The position numbers were made by a program, and so were the translations under genes. A stretch of 64,000 nucleotides of DNA from the NCBI GenBank assembly GCA_041661965.1, contig JBAZTH010000002.1, forward strand, positions 1 through 64,000, read 5' to 3'. A model generated the notes under the pieces. That model was given only the letters and a program-made list of their open reading frames with translations. It ran no database searches and was not told the DNA's origin. Positions 4,220 to 18,198 of the stretch are shown here, piece after piece (the stretch's first letter is position 1; every line of letters begins with the position of its first letter). The stretch is from Candidatus Margulisiibacteriota bacterium (GTDB lineage: Bacteria > Margulisbacteria > WOR-1 > O2-12-FULL-45-9 > XYB2-FULL-48-7).

Positions 4220-4292
4220 GCGCCATTAGCTCAATTGGTAGAGCAGCTGACTCTTAATCAGTTGGTTGAAGGTTCAAGTCCTTCATGGCGCA
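4220..4292 (+). tRNA. tRNA-Lys (anticodon CTT)
   Basis: Acceptor GCGCCAT/ATGGCGC plus A, anticodon loop CTCTTAA (U33, CUU, A37), T-arm GAAGG-TTCAAGT-CCTTC. The last 3 nt overlap inverted-repeat copy IR-L. Confidence 0.9.
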
Positions 4293-5721
4293 TTTTCCCT
4301 TTACAGCGAACCATCGCTGATGTTGGGCGGCTTGGAGGCGACGAATGTTGCCGACAAGCCGCCCTATTATTATGATCGGCCGAAAAATCCCCTTCCGCCG
4401 CAGGGTCGCGCAGCGGGCCGGAGGCGGCATCGACGCTATCGGAATACAATAGTTTGACTTCTATCGTCTCTTTCGAATAAATGACCTTTTCGATGTGCCT
4501 TTTTATGACCAGGCGTTTCTCAGTTTTTCCCTTCAGTTTTGCCGCGTCAATGACGGCTTTTAGTATCTCCTGGACTCTTTCGGTCTTTATCGGTGAGTAA
4601 CCCCCACCTGGTTCGCACCCACTCAAGCCACCATTGCTATCGTTATTGAGCACGTAGGTCAAACTATCAAGGTATTGTCTGTTATTCCTGATCCTATCAA
4701 GGTTATCGATGATAAACTTGTCCAGCCGGTCGGCGCTCACCTGTCGGATGTCGCAGAATGACCGATCTCGCTTATCGATAACTGAACAGCGGTAGTAGAA
4801 ATATCTGGTCCGCTTGTTATTGGCATATTTGACCTTGTTGGTGAACACCGCGCACATAGCCGAGCCGCACTCTTTACAGCGGATCAAGCCGGGAAATAGC
4901 GAAAAGTTAAAGGTTGTCATCTTCTTGGGCCGAATATGGTCTTTCCTGATGTTCTGGACCTCATCGAAAATCATTTTGGAGATGATCGGCGTGTGAAGGC
5001 CCTGATATATTGTCCCCTTATGCTCGACCATCCCGGCATGGACAACGCCTTTCAGGATCGAATCTAAGCCGGTTTTAGAATGAGGCAGGCCGGAGCGGGT
5101 AAACTGTTTATTAGCTTTAAGCTTGTCGTAAATCCGCTGTGTTGAATGGGTCTCCAAAAAGTCCTCAAAGATAGTTTTGACTATTTCGGCCTCTTTGGGA
5201 ACGATGACCAGCTTGTTGCCATCCCTCTCGTAGCCAAATGGTGCTCTGCCAGGCCCCCACAACCCCTTTCTGGCCTTCTCGAGTATCTTGTCCCTGATCC
5301 GCTCGCTGATAAGCTCCCGCTCGAATTGGGCGAAGGTCAGCATTATATTCCGTAGCAGTCGACCGGATGGCGTTGAGGTATCAAAGCGCTCGGTTATCGA
5401 AAGGAAGCTAACGTTGTGCCTCTCAAATATTTCTATAAGCTGATAGAAGTCTTTGGGCGATCTGGTCAGCCGATCGATCTTGTACGAGATAACTATATCG
5501 AGCTTGCCTTGCTGTATATCGTGGAGCATTTCCTTCAACGCCGGGCGGTCCGTATTTGCGCCCGTGTAGCCCTGGTCCGAATAGACCTTGTAAATATCCA
5601 TCTTTTCCTGACTGCTAACAAACGACCTGATCTTTGACTCCTGGGTCGCACAGGAATTAAACTCAACATCGGCTTGGCTATCGGTAGAGACCCTGGTATA
5701 GATTGCTGCTTTCATGGTCAA
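4258..5721 (-). CDS. Large serine recombinase (resolvase/invertase catalytic domain, recombinase domain, zinc ribbon)
   Basis: N-terminus MKAAIYTRVSTDSQ...YKIDRLTRS (catalytic Ser motif), then a recombinase domain and CxxC...C zinc ribbon. There is no in-frame stop before 4258, so the last ~65 codons read through IR-L and the antisense of tRNA-Lys; the native C-terminus is uncertain. Confidence 0.9.
   Translation of the reverse strand: MTMKAAIYTRVSTDSQADVEFNSCATQESKIRSFVSSQEKMDIYKVYSDQGYTGANTDRPALKEMLHDIQQGKLDIVISYKIDRLTRSPKDFYQLIEIFERHNVSFLSITERFDTSTPSGRLLRNIMLTFAQFERELISERIRDKILEKARKGLWGPGRAPFGYERDGNKLVIVPKEAEIVKTIFEDFLETHSTQRIYDKLKANKQFTRSGLPHSKTGLDSILKGVVHAGMVEHKGTIYQGLHTPIISKMIFDEVQNIRKDHIRPKKMTTFNFSLFPGLIRCKECGSAMCAVFTNKVKYANNKRTRYFYYRCSVIDKRDRSFCDIRQVSADRLDKFIIDNLDRIRNNRQYLDSLTYVLNNDSNGGLSGCEPGGGYSPIKTERVQEILKAVIDAAKLKGKTEKRLVIKRHIEKVIYSKETIEVKLLYSDSVDAASGPLRDPAAEGDFSADHNNRAACRQHSSPPSRPTSAMVRCKGKMRHEGLEPSTN
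4290..4451. repeat. IR-L: left copy of a perfect 162-bp inverted repeat (partner 6789-6950), abutting the tRNA-Lys 3' end
   Basis: Base-for-base reverse-complement identity with 6789-6950, checked by eye. A further ~50 bp inward (4452-4500 vs 6740-6788) is ~75% identical. Confidence 0.9.
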
Positions 5722-5907
5722 TTTCCTCCTTTATTTGAGATCAAATACTTAAGCTCTTTTATCAAAACTTGCTGGGCGTTCATGCTATTAAGTTTTTGGA
5801 TGTAAGCCAAGAACTTATTGCACTCGACCTTTTGGGCCATACTACAGATAACCCCGGCTTGCCTCTTGTCGCAATAACAGCAAGGGTGAATTGGATAAAA
5901 CGGCATA

Positions 5908-6453
5908 CTAAAACACCTCCCTGCCTGCCGGTATGGCAGGCTTGTTTAAAACGAAGCAATGACTGGCGAGATCAGCGGGCAATGAGGCCCCACCGCCGCA
6001 GAGAAACACATAAACCGGAATGCCGCGCCTGACTGCCTGACGCACCGTGAACAGCGTGCCCCGGGACGAACCATGCAGGAAAGCAACCAGGCACGAGCAG
6101 GCAGAGATAAGCCGCTGATTGCGCCCCAGAAGCGCGGAGACCGCCTGCTGCCGCGCCGCGCCGGGAGAAGCCGAACCCCAAACCACCTGACCACCAGCGG
6201 CCAGAAAACGCCCAACCGAGGGACGGACCGAGACCGGAAACCCGCCAGCCGAAGACCAAGCCGAGAAGACCACCCCCGAAGCAGATGCCCCCTGCTCAAC
6301 CAGGGCGGAAAGGGCGAACTGATCAGCCCCAACTGCGCCACCGGAGGCCACCAGGAAGCCACGAGCCCGGAACGCGGAGACCAAAGAGGCAACGAACGGG
6401 GAAAAAGAAGCGGGAAGCGAGCGGGAACCAACGAAACCAGCAATGCGAGACAT
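5908..6453 (-). CDS. DprA/Smf-like Rossmann-fold protein (DNA-processing family, short form)
   Basis: GGAVGADQFALSALVEQGA and GSSRGTLFTVRQAVRRGIPVYVF resemble the DprA Rossmann domain. Preferred start is the second ATG (MSRIAGF) behind RBS GGAGGTG. The gene is GC-rich, unlike the adjacent AT-rich recombinase. Confidence 0.45.
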   Translation of the reverse strand: MSRIAGFVGSRSLPASFSPFVASLVSAFRARGFLVASGGAVGADQFALSALVEQGASASGVVFSAWSSAGGFPVSVRPSVGRFLAAGGQVVWGSASPGAARQQAVSALLGRNQRLISACSCLVAFLHGSSRGTLFTVRQAVRRGIPVYVFLCGGGASLPADLASHCFVLNKPAIPAGREVF

Positions 6454-16277: not shown

Positions 16278-17825
16278 ATGAATGAGAATTATATTACGAA
16301 GACTAGATATCGAGAAGGGTTATTATGTCCAATATTACTGTGGCATAAGATTCACGAGCCAACAAAAGTTCCACAACCTGACCCTTTCGCAAGAATTAAA
16401 ATTGAAGGCGGGATTCAAGTCGGTATATTGGCAAGAAAATTATTTCCTGATGGCCTTCTTATCGAAAAAGAGACGTCGGCAATACTAACCCATGAAAAAT
16501 CGCTAAAAGCACTACAATTGCGAAAGCCATTATTTGAGGCAGGGTTTATCTATAATCATGCATATGCATTAGCAGACATATTAATCCCAGCAGAAGACAA
16601 CTCATGGGATTTACTCGAAGTAAAAGCAGAAAATTCGATTGATGAGAAAGATTATTGCTGTTTGAGTGAGAGCTTTAACCTTGATTGTGCTGACGTTGCA
16701 TTTCAGAAATATACATATACTAAAGCCGGCATAAATATTAGAAATTCTAATATCCTACATCTTAATAAGAAATACATTTATGATGGCAAAAAACTATTAT
16801 TAGAAAAGCTCTTTATTACCCCTGAAAAAGTGAATGACCCTAAAATCAAATTGATTGTACATGATGAGATTGATCGCCACCTCCCCCTTGTCGAAGCCAA
16901 TATAAATAAACTTGAGGAAATATTACAAAACAATGCTCGCCCTAAAACCATATTTAACAGAAATTGCAAGAAATGCGTATTGTACGACGAATGCTCCAAT
17001 ATCTTACCACCCGATCATGTTCTAATGCTAAGAAGGGATATGAAAGGCATTCGCTTCCAAATGCTGGAAAAGGGAATCACAAAATTATCAGACATCCCAA
17101 TAACTTCCGAGATAAAAGACCAAAAGATTGAACAAATTAATGCACATAAGACTGGAACAACATTAATTAAAACCAAGAATATTAGGGAATTTATAGACAA
17201 AATTGAATACCCCGCATATTTTCTAGATTTTGAAACAATTGACCCTGCCATCCCTATCTTTGAGAAAACACATTCATATCAAAAGATCCCATTCCAATAT
17301 TCATTGCATATAATAAAGAAGCACGGGGAAAAAGCAGAACATCATAGCTATTTAGCCAAAGGGGATGTTGATCCCAGGCCCGAATTATTGTCCCAGCTTA
17401 AAGCACTATTGGGCGATAGGGGCTCAATAATAACCTATAACGCTAAATTTGAAAGAGGTAGATTAAAAGAGGCGTCTGAAGACTTTCCAGAATATAGTGA
17501 TTGGTTTAATAATAATATTAATGGGCGCATAATTGATTTAGAAGAACCTTTCGATAAGTTCTTTTACTATGATCCCAAACAAAAAGGCAGTACATCTATT
17601 AAAGCTATTTTACCCGTATTAACTGATTGCAGCTATGAGGGGTTGGAAATATGCGAAGGGGGTACTGCCGCCGCTGAATATATTAGGGTTACTTTTAATA
17701 GTGTCGATGAAAAAGACAAAGAAAATGTTCGGAATCATCTGGAAATATATTGCAAGCAAGACACACAAGCTATGATAGATATACTGGAAAGATTAGAACA
17801 AATAGCCGCTGACAATACAAAATAA
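16278..17825 (+). CDS. DUF2779-like protein: Cas4/RecB-type PD-(D/E)xK nuclease region with Cys cluster plus C-terminal DnaQ-like exonuclease region
   Basis: CPILLWHK...CxxC cysteines and the YPAYFLDFETID motif (DEDD-like exonuclease) recalled from DUF2779 family members. 2 bp downstream of the helicase stop. Confidence 0.45.
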   Translation: MNENYITKTRYREGLLCPILLWHKIHEPTKVPQPDPFARIKIEGGIQVGILARKLFPDGLLIEKETSAILTHEKSLKALQLRKPLFEAGFIYNHAYALADILIPAEDNSWDLLEVKAENSIDEKDYCCLSESFNLDCADVAFQKYTYTKAGINIRNSNILHLNKKYIYDGKKLLLEKLFITPEKVNDPKIKLIVHDEIDRHLPLVEANINKLEEILQNNARPKTIFNRNCKKCVLYDECSNILPPDHVLMLRRDMKGIRFQMLEKGITKLSDIPITSEIKDQKIEQINAHKTGTTLIKTKNIREFIDKIEYPAYFLDFETIDPAIPIFEKTHSYQKIPFQYSLHIIKKHGEKAEHHSYLAKGDVDPRPELLSQLKALLGDRGSIITYNAKFERGRLKEASEDFPEYSDWFNNNINGRIIDLEEPFDKFFYYDPKQKGSTSIKAILPVLTDCSYEGLEICEGGTAAAEYIRVTFNSVDEKDKENVRNHLEIYCKQDTQAMIDILERLEQIAADNTK

Positions 17826-17905
17826 ACATCCAATATATAAGTAACTATATGCTGTCGTAATCTTTTCGGAGGAATTCAAATATAACATTAGTCGGCAAAT
17901 TAATA

Positions 17906-18090
17906 AGCAGTTTTTTCGACGCATGGGGGAGAAAAAAATGATTATTTGACAAATTATTGCCTATTCAGGTCTTTTTTTCATCCATGGTGTTGGGTATAAT
18001 CATTGAGATAGCCCCCGGCGCTGAATGGTCTGATGATCATCGGGTCGAGGCATTTTTCTCTTCTATCGCCTTCTGCCTTCGCCTTTAGCT
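17906..18090 (+). promoter_or_regulatory. Cassette copy C: degenerate version of B (TTGACA 17946-17951, TATAAT 17995-18000, weakened -35, leader to 18052), with no gene downstream
   Basis: Aligned by eye to copy B. Small deletions in the -35 region; the tail hairpin is absent. Confidence 0.5.
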
Positions 18091-18198
18091 TTTGGGAGTA
18101 GAAAAGGCTAAGACTTAGAGGCAAAAGGCTATCAGGCTTGAAGGCTTATTCCCCCCCTATCATCTCAGCAGCTTCAGATATTCAGCAGCGGCAGTATT

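Follow-up and report, generated by a model that had tools for sequence, protein, structure and literature searches.

The window analysed here, a stretch of 64,000 nucleotides from a Candidatus Margulisiibacteriota genome, carries an array of four host tRNA genes, Gly(tcc)-Arg(tct)-Leu(tag)-Lys(ctt), at 3875-4292 on the plus strand. A first-pass annotation had reported this array ahead of an AT-rich island, and both ARAGORN and Rfam recovered it. The DNA that follows, 4290-18052, is probably a modular genomic island located at the 3′ end of tRNA-Lys(CTT) and integrated by a Ccr-like large serine recombinase (LSR). It comprises a recombinase module, M (4293-6950), with inverted arms R1 and R2. 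Beyond M lie two cargo units: unit 1 (6951-12354), flanked by two copies of a promoter-plus-core cassette in inverse orientation to each other, and unit 2 (12355-18052), closed by a third copy.

Module M contains three genes, all on the minus strand. The first encodes the LSR (485 aa, 4258-5715), and its 3′ end overlaps the tRNA, in agreement with the earlier report of a large serine recombinase at this place. Three Pfam domains score above their cut-offs: PF00239 (Resolvase; residues 5-154, E = 1.1e-38), PF07508 (Recombinase; 45.7 bits, cut-off 21.1) and PF13408 (Zn_ribbon_recom; 43.1 bits, cut-off 25.3). The N-terminal motif YTRVSTDSQ is invariant in 14 homologues. An exact look-up of the window LSR returned no record; its homologues number in the thousands. 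The top named NCBIfam families were CcrB, XisF, CcrC and CcrA, all far under their cut-offs (199 of 900 bits for CcrB, 144 of 900 for CcrC, 137 of 700 for CcrA), which leaves the protein outside the Ccr families.

The last ~65 codons of the LSR frame run through R1 into the antisense strand of tRNA-Lys. Many homologous frames end in GLEPST or GFEPTT, the antisense translation of a tRNA T-arm. Substitutions at the three codon positions were nearly even in this tail (557:587:718) compared with the core of the protein (4704:3186:10347). We therefore rejected a real C-terminal domain encoded by R1, as the tail has no coding-type substitution bias. On this pattern, the tail is best read as read-through of a DNA element, not as a protein domain.

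Next to the LSR gene are a gene for a Cys-rich protein of 62 aa (5718-5906, from the list of open reading frames) and a DprA-like gene (SLOG/Rossmann; 5908-6453; PF02481, E = 3e-10). The 62-aa protein is kept beside the LSR in relatives at 62-90% identity and had no match in Pfam or PADLOC. The DprA-like gene has only 7.1% adenine on its coding strand, compared with ~30% in the adjoining LSR and 62-aa genes. Its GC content is 63% with an AT skew of +0.62, and that of the LSR gene is 49%. All eight homologues checked (L005, L006, L007, L008, L009, L016, L136 and L146) had 6.4-9.9% adenine, and the depletion holds even where amino-acid identity is 75% and where the GC content of the locus is 44-50%. 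K, N, D, E, T, Y, M and I are scarce in the protein. The bias of substitutions among codon positions indicates that the gene is truly coding. We found 212 homologues of it, mostly on contigs of 0.7-2.6 kb; the names given by their sources were only Saganbacteria, Margulisbacteria, WOR-1 and unclassified ‘bacterium’.

A non-coding stretch of 314 nt separates the DprA-like gene from R2 and has a 20-nt inverted repeat of its own (6490-6510 / 6678-6700). A TTGACA-N19-TATCAT element at 6677-6707 points out through the junction between R2 and the first cassette to cargo operon 1 and is convergent with the promoter-like element of that cassette.

A perfect inverted repeat of 162 nt (4290-4451 / 6789-6950), missed in the first-pass annotation, brackets M and lengthens to 220 nt at 95.9% identity. 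Arm R1 lies on the plus strand at 4290-4507, its similarity to R2 reaching 4507, and arm R2 on the minus strand at 6734-6950. Within R1 are a pyrimidine-rich spacer of 14 nt, three hairpins and the motif CGAACCAT; the predicted fold of the arm has -67 kcal/mol (z = -3.7). We considered an assembly artefact as the source of the perfect repeat and rejected it, since independent assemblies, and a curated complete genome, also contain the repeat. By coordinate mapping, L085, from an independent assembly of the same strain, ends at 6789 in R2. The same-strain contigs L085 and L086 stop at R2 and at the core of the second cassette, respectively, so they are uninformative on alternative arrangements.

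A transcript running from the promoter-like element of the first cassette to the LSR stop codon would have perfectly complementary 5′ and 3′ ends of 162 nt. Read inwards, each arm has a 16-bp GC-rich hairpin (4325-4364) followed by TATTATTAT, a terminator-like arrangement for transcription that enters M. The complementary transcript ends or this hairpin could control expression of the recombinase.

The first-pass annotation had noted repeated cassettes. Three copies are present, as it implied; it had missed that copy A runs opposite to copies B and C and that the cassettes appear to be the attachment-site ends of the element. Copies B and C read rightwards, each with a hairpin, a TATAAT element and a 39-nt core ending in GGCA. 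Copy B (12191-12354, plus strand) has its hairpin at 12196-12245 (-25.5 kcal/mol, z = -7.2; terminator-like), TTGCAT-N17-TATAAT at 12276-12304 and core C_B at 12316-12354. It is 85-96% identical to cassettes of other genomes. Copy C (17899-18052, plus strand) has a degenerate hairpin, TATAAT at 17995-18000 and core C_C at 18014-18052. Copy A (6951-7040, minus strand) abuts R2 and is 89% complementary to copy B; it contains core C_A, and its TATAAT (6998-7003) faces into M. A -10-like element ~40 nt outside the distal arm and facing the module is seen in many relatives.

Each cargo unit opens with a further hairpin. H_A (7043-7092, plus strand), with a 10-bp GC stem and a conserved 26-nt loop, begins unit 1 (-26.3 kcal/mol, z = -4.9), and the same hairpin opens cargo units in relatives. 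Unit 2 begins at 12355-12460 (plus strand) with X_B, a pyrimidine-rich segment related to the segment X_C that follows copy C, and then hairpin H_B (12412-12460). X_C in turn resembles the sequence past the terminal core in other tRNA-Lys islands (L104, L124/L147). The cassette hairpins were missed by a consensus promoter/terminator scan as their loop is too long. An Rfam scan of 3800-20000 at E <= 1 gave only tRNAs and chance matches, assigning the cassettes, H and R to no RNA family. We also rejected a reading of the core as a fragment of a tRNA or a small RNA: it had no Rfam match, and no significant fold (z = -0.3) was obtained for the 116-nt stretch from just past the TATAAT of copy B through the core and X_B.

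The cargo itself consists of the two helicase/nuclease operons of the first-pass annotation, both on the plus strand. Operon 1 (7148-12171, 38.5% GC) encodes a ParB-like protein, a 140-aa protein, an SNF2 helicase, another ParB-like protein and a B12-binding radical-SAM protein. Operon 2 (12574-17825) encodes an SNF2 helicase of 1233 aa, whose N-terminus is DrmD/BrxHI-like, and a DUF2779 protein that includes a Cas4-like region. No complete known defence system was matched by either operon. From their domain content and context, we infer that the two SNF2 operons are probably anti-phage. Phage or conjugation genes are not visible in the island. The C-terminal ~600 aa of the 1233-aa protein (12574-16275) match no family; this half contains many C-x-(I/V/L)-(T/S)-G-K-x-(V/A) repeats, which resemble tandem zinc-ribbon or knuckle units.

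Four junctions of recombinase type, S1 to S4, divide the island. S1 (GCA, 4290-4292, plus strand) joins tRNA-Lys to R1 and is the left boundary of the island. S2 (TGC at 6948-6950, GCA on the minus strand) joins R2 to the inverted core C_A. S3 (GCA, 12352-12354, plus strand) joins C_B to X_B, and the terminal S4 (GCA, 18050-18052, plus strand) joins C_C to X_C. At each junction, a half-site reading towards GCA meets a half-site reading away from it. The former is the tRNA T-arm or a core with ATGGTTTGA; the latter is R with CGAACCAT or the pyrimidine-rich X. The repeat begins at the last 3 nt of the tRNA in the window and likewise in about 20 relatives.

The spacing of motifs distinguishes two types of half-site. 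In the window, the T-loop GGTTCAAG of tRNA-Lys and its counterpart in the cassette cores differ in distance from the junction, the T-loop being 4 nt nearer. Across phyla, GTTCRA is found from 18 nt on the tRNA side and GTTYG from 22 nt on the core side, with YRAAC 18 nt inside arm R. GTTYG was present on the core side in every case, and the motifs make each junction appear dyad-symmetric. In characterised serine integrases, an inward shift of ~5 bp separates attB-type from attP-type half-sites. By motif spacing, the 3′ half of tRNA-Lys would be a B-type half-site, and C and R would be P-type half-sites. The same geometry suggests an attL at S1, an attP at S2 that is intact and inverted, and attR sites at S3 and S4. 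The four junctions have only GCA in common, so the 2-bp crossover should be GC or CA. There is no target duplication.

The cargo (6951-18052) has 39.3% GC, compared with 53-56% for the host. In 2-kb intervals, the maximum within the cargo was 0.424 and the minimum outside 4293-19560 was 0.453, without overlap, and the anomaly is far beyond chance. GC at the third codon position (GC3) was 0.32-0.43 in cargo genes and 0.46-0.76 in the remaining long open reading frames of the window. The ~14 kb of AT-rich island proposed in the first-pass annotation therefore holds for the cargo and fails for M (4293-6950), the first 2.66 kb past tRNA-Lys, which is host-like at 51.5% GC. The sharp fall to 35-40% GC that it placed immediately after tRNA-Lys in fact starts at ~7.0 kb. 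The recovery that it placed at ~18.2-18.6 kb is gradual, with 44% over 18053-19560 and more than 55% only from ~23 kb.

The recombinase-defined right end is 18052: the last junction of recombinase type lies in copy C (18050-18052), where the first-pass annotation had suspected the boundary. It had seen no direct repeat of the tRNA-Lys 3′ end at the right boundary, and our repeat search of the window found none of this tyrosine-integrase signature there. Its absence is expected of a serine recombinase. The alternative limit at ~19.5 kb, beyond an AT-rich SPFH pair, is less likely. This pair (18199-19461, minus strand) consists of a 133-aa membrane protein gene and an SPFH/Band 7 gene (PF01145), with GC3 values of 0.45 and 0.56, intermediate to host-like. 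A complete, curated genome from Saganbacteria/WOR-1 (L005, to which L001 is identical) has other genes in place of 18053-19560, and synteny with it is regained at ~19.6 kb, at a 35-aa open reading frame (19623-19730) and an abhydrolase gene. With moderate confidence, this 1.5-kb stretch is probably a strain-variable flank outside the element.

This WOR-1 genome, the closest relative, shares with the window both the flank, made up of the H+-PPase gene and tRNA-Gly-Arg-Leu-Lys, and module M. Its cargo is unlike that of the window: two D12 methyltransferases, RE_AlwI and an AAA_13 ATPase. The first-pass annotation had taken the island for a horizontally acquired integrative element at the tRNA-Lys 3′ end, a view that would have suffered from the same genes lying at this tRNA in vertical synteny, and with no anomaly of composition, in related genomes. 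The WOR-1 genome shows the opposite, the cargo having been turned over at the same site beside the same module, and so supports it. M is 87% identical in nucleotides between the two genomes, and its proteins are 91% (LSR), 94% (DprA-like) and 87% (62-aa protein) identical. The cassette that closes the WOR-1 cargo is 85% identical to copy B, and the nucleotide identity of the host PPase gene is 71-75%. Since the module proteins are 87-94% identical, compared with 53-80% for flanking host orthologues, module and cassettes have moved between lineages. The arm of the window differs from the WOR-1 arm by ~13%, while R1 and R2 of the window are 100% identical to each other. This combination implies gene conversion, by which R1 and R2 would evolve in concert.

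The architecture is conserved in a wide family. A scan with one genome per species gave 210 relatives, of which 80 were kept. These 80 loci came from Margulisiibacteriota/Saganbacteria, Patescibacteria, Omnitrophota, Planctomycetia and others. Of these, 49 have a tRNA gene no more than 400 nt from the 3′ end of the LSR gene, always convergent with the LSR, and at least 12 tRNA identities are used by the family. In most loci with enough upstream sequence, an inverted repeat of 100-270 nt with 75-100% arm identity flanks the LSR module; the repeat is thus a family trait. Its outer edge coincides with the last 2-7 nt of the tRNA in relatives. Among 19 loci tested, 9 had a second, inverted copy of the module-side core past the cargo (93-100% identical, 2-6.5 kb off). 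Cores have a variable centre of 9-11 nt, which differs among elements and is the same at both ends of one cargo unit.

A metagenome scan with the core pattern added ~30 true relatives, which were mapped with the cassette components. Their common scheme starts with the tRNA, joined to M between two R arms. The second arm is joined to an inverted core with promoter, which is followed by H, the genes, a hairpin, a promoter and a core, and this last core is joined to X. Variants of the scheme were found. L123 is a tandem array of two units without a recombinase, and in L088 and L124/L147 the left end of the island is the tRNA joined to X and H. In four recombinase-less islands (L104, L108, L131 and L142), remnants of R with differing end points remain; their appearance suggests that M was once present and was deleted independently. 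In several loci (L052, L104, L159), the promoter of the terminal cassette is followed by a co-directional tRNA gene, which suggests a role in restoring expression beyond the insertion.

The cargo of relatives often consists of restriction-modification or other conflict genes, and in some cases of arsenic/metal-resistance or metabolic genes. The cargo of L142 (10423-11268) includes a reverse transcriptase fused to a bAvd-like domain, components of diversity-generating retroelements.

Both orientations of M occur. At orthologous tRNA-Tyr sites with homologous host flanks, the LSR 3′ end is adjacent to the tRNA in L011 and L013, and M is inverted in L016. Because L016 is opposite to the other two, M can flip, or can enter either way round. 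The recombinase frame of L016 stops early, at ~416 aa, which suggests a frameshift.

From these arrangements we infer the following recombination steps. M with its cargo would enter as a circle by recombination of attP with attB at the tRNA, with the crossover within GCA, its final 2-3 nt. The tRNA would stay intact, without target duplication, because the crossover lies within these nucleotides. Recombination of S1 with S3 or with S4 would excise M together with one or both cargo units and would leave recombinase-less islands of the kinds seen in metagenomes. Inverted pairs of sites might let M, and possibly cargo, be inverted or swapped without loss. At each cassette end, the outward TATAAT promoter and the hairpin upstream of it would insulate the cargo and re-drive transcription of downstream DNA, often a tRNA gene in relatives. 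Extended to the whole family, we propose tentatively, as a possibility rather than a probability, that a single LSR family builds and edits tRNA-linked islands across several largely metagenomic phyla by means of nested inverted pairs of attachment sites. M and blocks of cargo would be flipped or exchanged between inverted sites, not lost by simple excision, and each end would bring its own terminator and outward promoter.

The long inverted repeats around M also invite another explanation, that M (4290-6950) is an autonomous inverted-terminal-repeat element inserted between tRNA-Lys and an older, unrelated island, whose cargo and cassettes the LSR does not move. M is better conserved than the cargo, is found in both orientations and is often assembled as an isolated contig of 0.7-2.6 kb, and islands without M exist. 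A clean junction of tRNA and inverted core, the empty target expected in that case, was however not seen. Residual R sequence whose deletion end points vary (L104, L108, L131, L142) is read as loss of M, and the cassette cores share with R the P-type half-site geometry and the GCA centre. The cassettes also travel with M, being 85% identical in the window and WOR-1, where the host PPase gene has only 71-75% nucleotide identity. We consider an autonomous M unlikely.

Cassette ends that are 85-96% identical across genomes, a DprA-like gene, and identical repeat arms that imply gene conversion would also fit a hot spot of homologous recombination. Cassettes and tRNA would then serve as homology arms, cargo would be swapped after DNA uptake, perhaps aided by the DprA-like protein, and the LSR would only invert or regulate its own module. 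Similarity at the junctions, however, switches exactly at GCA and not variably within the cassettes, and cargo and variable core centre move together. At least 12 tRNAs are used, always at the same 3′-end position; this constancy is the mark of site-specific integration. A hot spot of homologous exchange is accordingly improbable in our judgement, more so than an autonomous M. Serine integrases beside tRNA genes are common in prophages, and a degraded prophage or phage satellite could have retained one, with internal repeats as decay products or assembly artefacts. An IMG/VR scan did give 11 relatives, two of them with more than 50% identity. These 11 were found among 2.9 million viral contigs, compared with 210 relatives from genomes; the region has no capsid, terminase, replication or lysis gene, and the repeats recur in independent assemblies, in the curated complete genome and across phyla. 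With almost no relatives in IMG/VR, a prophage origin was rejected as very improbable.

Several observations weigh against our own proposal of an island built by the LSR. No circular junction was found, and neither integration nor excision was observed. An exact look-up of the host PPase gave no empty tRNA-Lys site. The dyad axis lies 1-2 nt left of the common GCA and leaves both GC and CA as candidates for the crossover; a CA crossover would make S2 truly inverted, and GC, a palindrome, would remove the polarity. No recognisable B′-type motif is present in X_B and X_C, and X_B is an internal copy of the terminal flank, of unexplained origin. The consensus scan also missed the cassette promoters (their -35 is weak, matching at 3 of 6 positions), so that calling them rests on the conserved TATAAT and its position. 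Homogenisation of the arms is not universal, as the WOR-1 arms are only 80% identical to each other. M shows an orientation bias of 49:1 (tRNA next to the LSR 3′ end against inverted), and the two orientations were seen between genomes, not within one population. One orientation therefore dominates, and inversion is rare or selected against; it could also result from homologous recombination rather than from the LSR. Finally, the ‘cargo’ of the recombinase-less L104 (2319-9134) is of housekeeping type, with PEPCK, purC and an aminotransferase.

This housekeeping cargo of L104 lies between tRNA-Lys and tRNA-His and is bounded by the same cassette parts. It hints that the sites of this family may also rearrange host DNA.

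The nearest analogue of the window island is found in the staphylococcal-type cassette chromosomes (SCC/SCCmec) and the Enterococcus cassette chromosome (ECC), both mediated by Ccr. In SCC elements, an LSR inserts at the 3′ end of a conserved gene, which is kept active, at att sites with dyad symmetry; variable content surrounds a small recombinase core, recombinase-less remnants exist, and elements replace one another at one site (PMC6222049). The island resembles these elements in its LSR, its position at the 3′ end of a conserved gene, its apparently dyad-symmetric att sites, its variable cargo and the recombinase-less remnants among its relatives, and CcrB is the best-scoring named family for its LSR. 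Composite arrays are likewise present, with four junctions and two cargo units in the window and recombinase-less or tandem arrays in L088, L104 and L123. The target differs, as SCC and ECC use rlmH and the island uses a tRNA 3′ end (tRNA-Lys, and other tRNAs in relatives). SCC employs a CcrAB pair, whereas the island has a single recombinase scoring 199 bits where CcrB requires 900. Unlike SCC and ECC, the family has inverted repeats of 100-270 bp around the module, an internal, apparently intact inverted attP, and cargo units ending in an inverted promoter-plus-core, and its hosts belong to uncultivated phyla.

Tycheposons and other additive tRNA-linked islands share with the island tRNA-adjacent, site-specific integration, cargo modules, tandem junctions and defence or niche cargo. 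These elements have tyrosine recombinases in 910 of 937 cases and leave direct repeats of part of the tRNA; many carry replication genes, and inverted pairs of att sites and cassette ends are not described (bioRxiv 10.1101/2020.12.28.424599). Integrons are similar in having an array of cargo cassettes by a recombinase gene, with recombination sites between cassettes and promoters into the neighbouring cassette. They use a tyrosine recombinase (IntI), attI and attC, single-stranded attC hairpins and a single Pc promoter, in contrast to the serine recombinase, the double-stranded dyad sites and the promoter and hairpin at each cassette end of the island, which is thus not an integron. It also differs from a serine-invertase switch, in which a small enzyme with a C-terminal HTH acts on sites of ~26 bp; here the LSR has 485 aa and the arms have 162-270 bp.

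In Tn4451/Tn5397-type elements, an LSR (the large resolvases TnpX/TndX) moves cargo through a circular form, and the joined ends of Tn4451 form a promoter for the recombinase gene. The latter resembles junction S2 of the window, where promoter-core and R are joined and read into the LSR operon. Elements of this type are not known to be tRNA-specific or to have long inverted repeats or multi-cassette arrays. The layout of inverted att sites also resembles that of engineered recombinase-mediated cassette exchange, of which it would be a natural form.

The island itself is an ordinary kind of object, and the family-wide architecture appears undescribed. A full-text search of the literature gave no description of this family of LSR islands, although absence there is no proof of novelty. 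For the window, the analysis fixes the boundaries of the island and explains the repeats seen in the first-pass annotation. For the family, it points to a conserved, portable architecture through which uncultivated bacteria with small genomes may acquire and swap genes for defence and adaptation at tRNAs. If the nested-inverted-site reading is true, these islands are a natural serine-recombinase counterpart of the integron, with an unexplained adenine-depleted accessory gene. The many natural sets of LSR and att sites, with readable half-site rules, could serve genome engineering. The architecture also explains the breaks of short-read assemblies at these loci.

The sole candidate for an empty site was L175 (ena:ERZ27249449:k141_154596), which was rejected. 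At 10224-10309, it matches the window at 100% up to the middle of tRNA-Leu(tag); beyond that point, it continues into AT-rich, non-window DNA that carries genes for tRNA-Glu and a signal peptidase. The contig is probably chimeric, with two sequences joined by the assembly inside the tRNA.

The window contains another insert next to a tRNA gene. The last 28 nt of tRNA-His(gtg) (28147-28224), with downstream bases, are repeated directly at 28925-28951 with 96% identity. The repeats bracket an insert of ~700 bp and 31% GC with one open reading frame of 204 aa (28264-28878, minus strand), which has no Pfam match. The arrangement resembles a further, small insertion linked to a tRNA, of the type made by tyrosine integrases and lacking an integrase.

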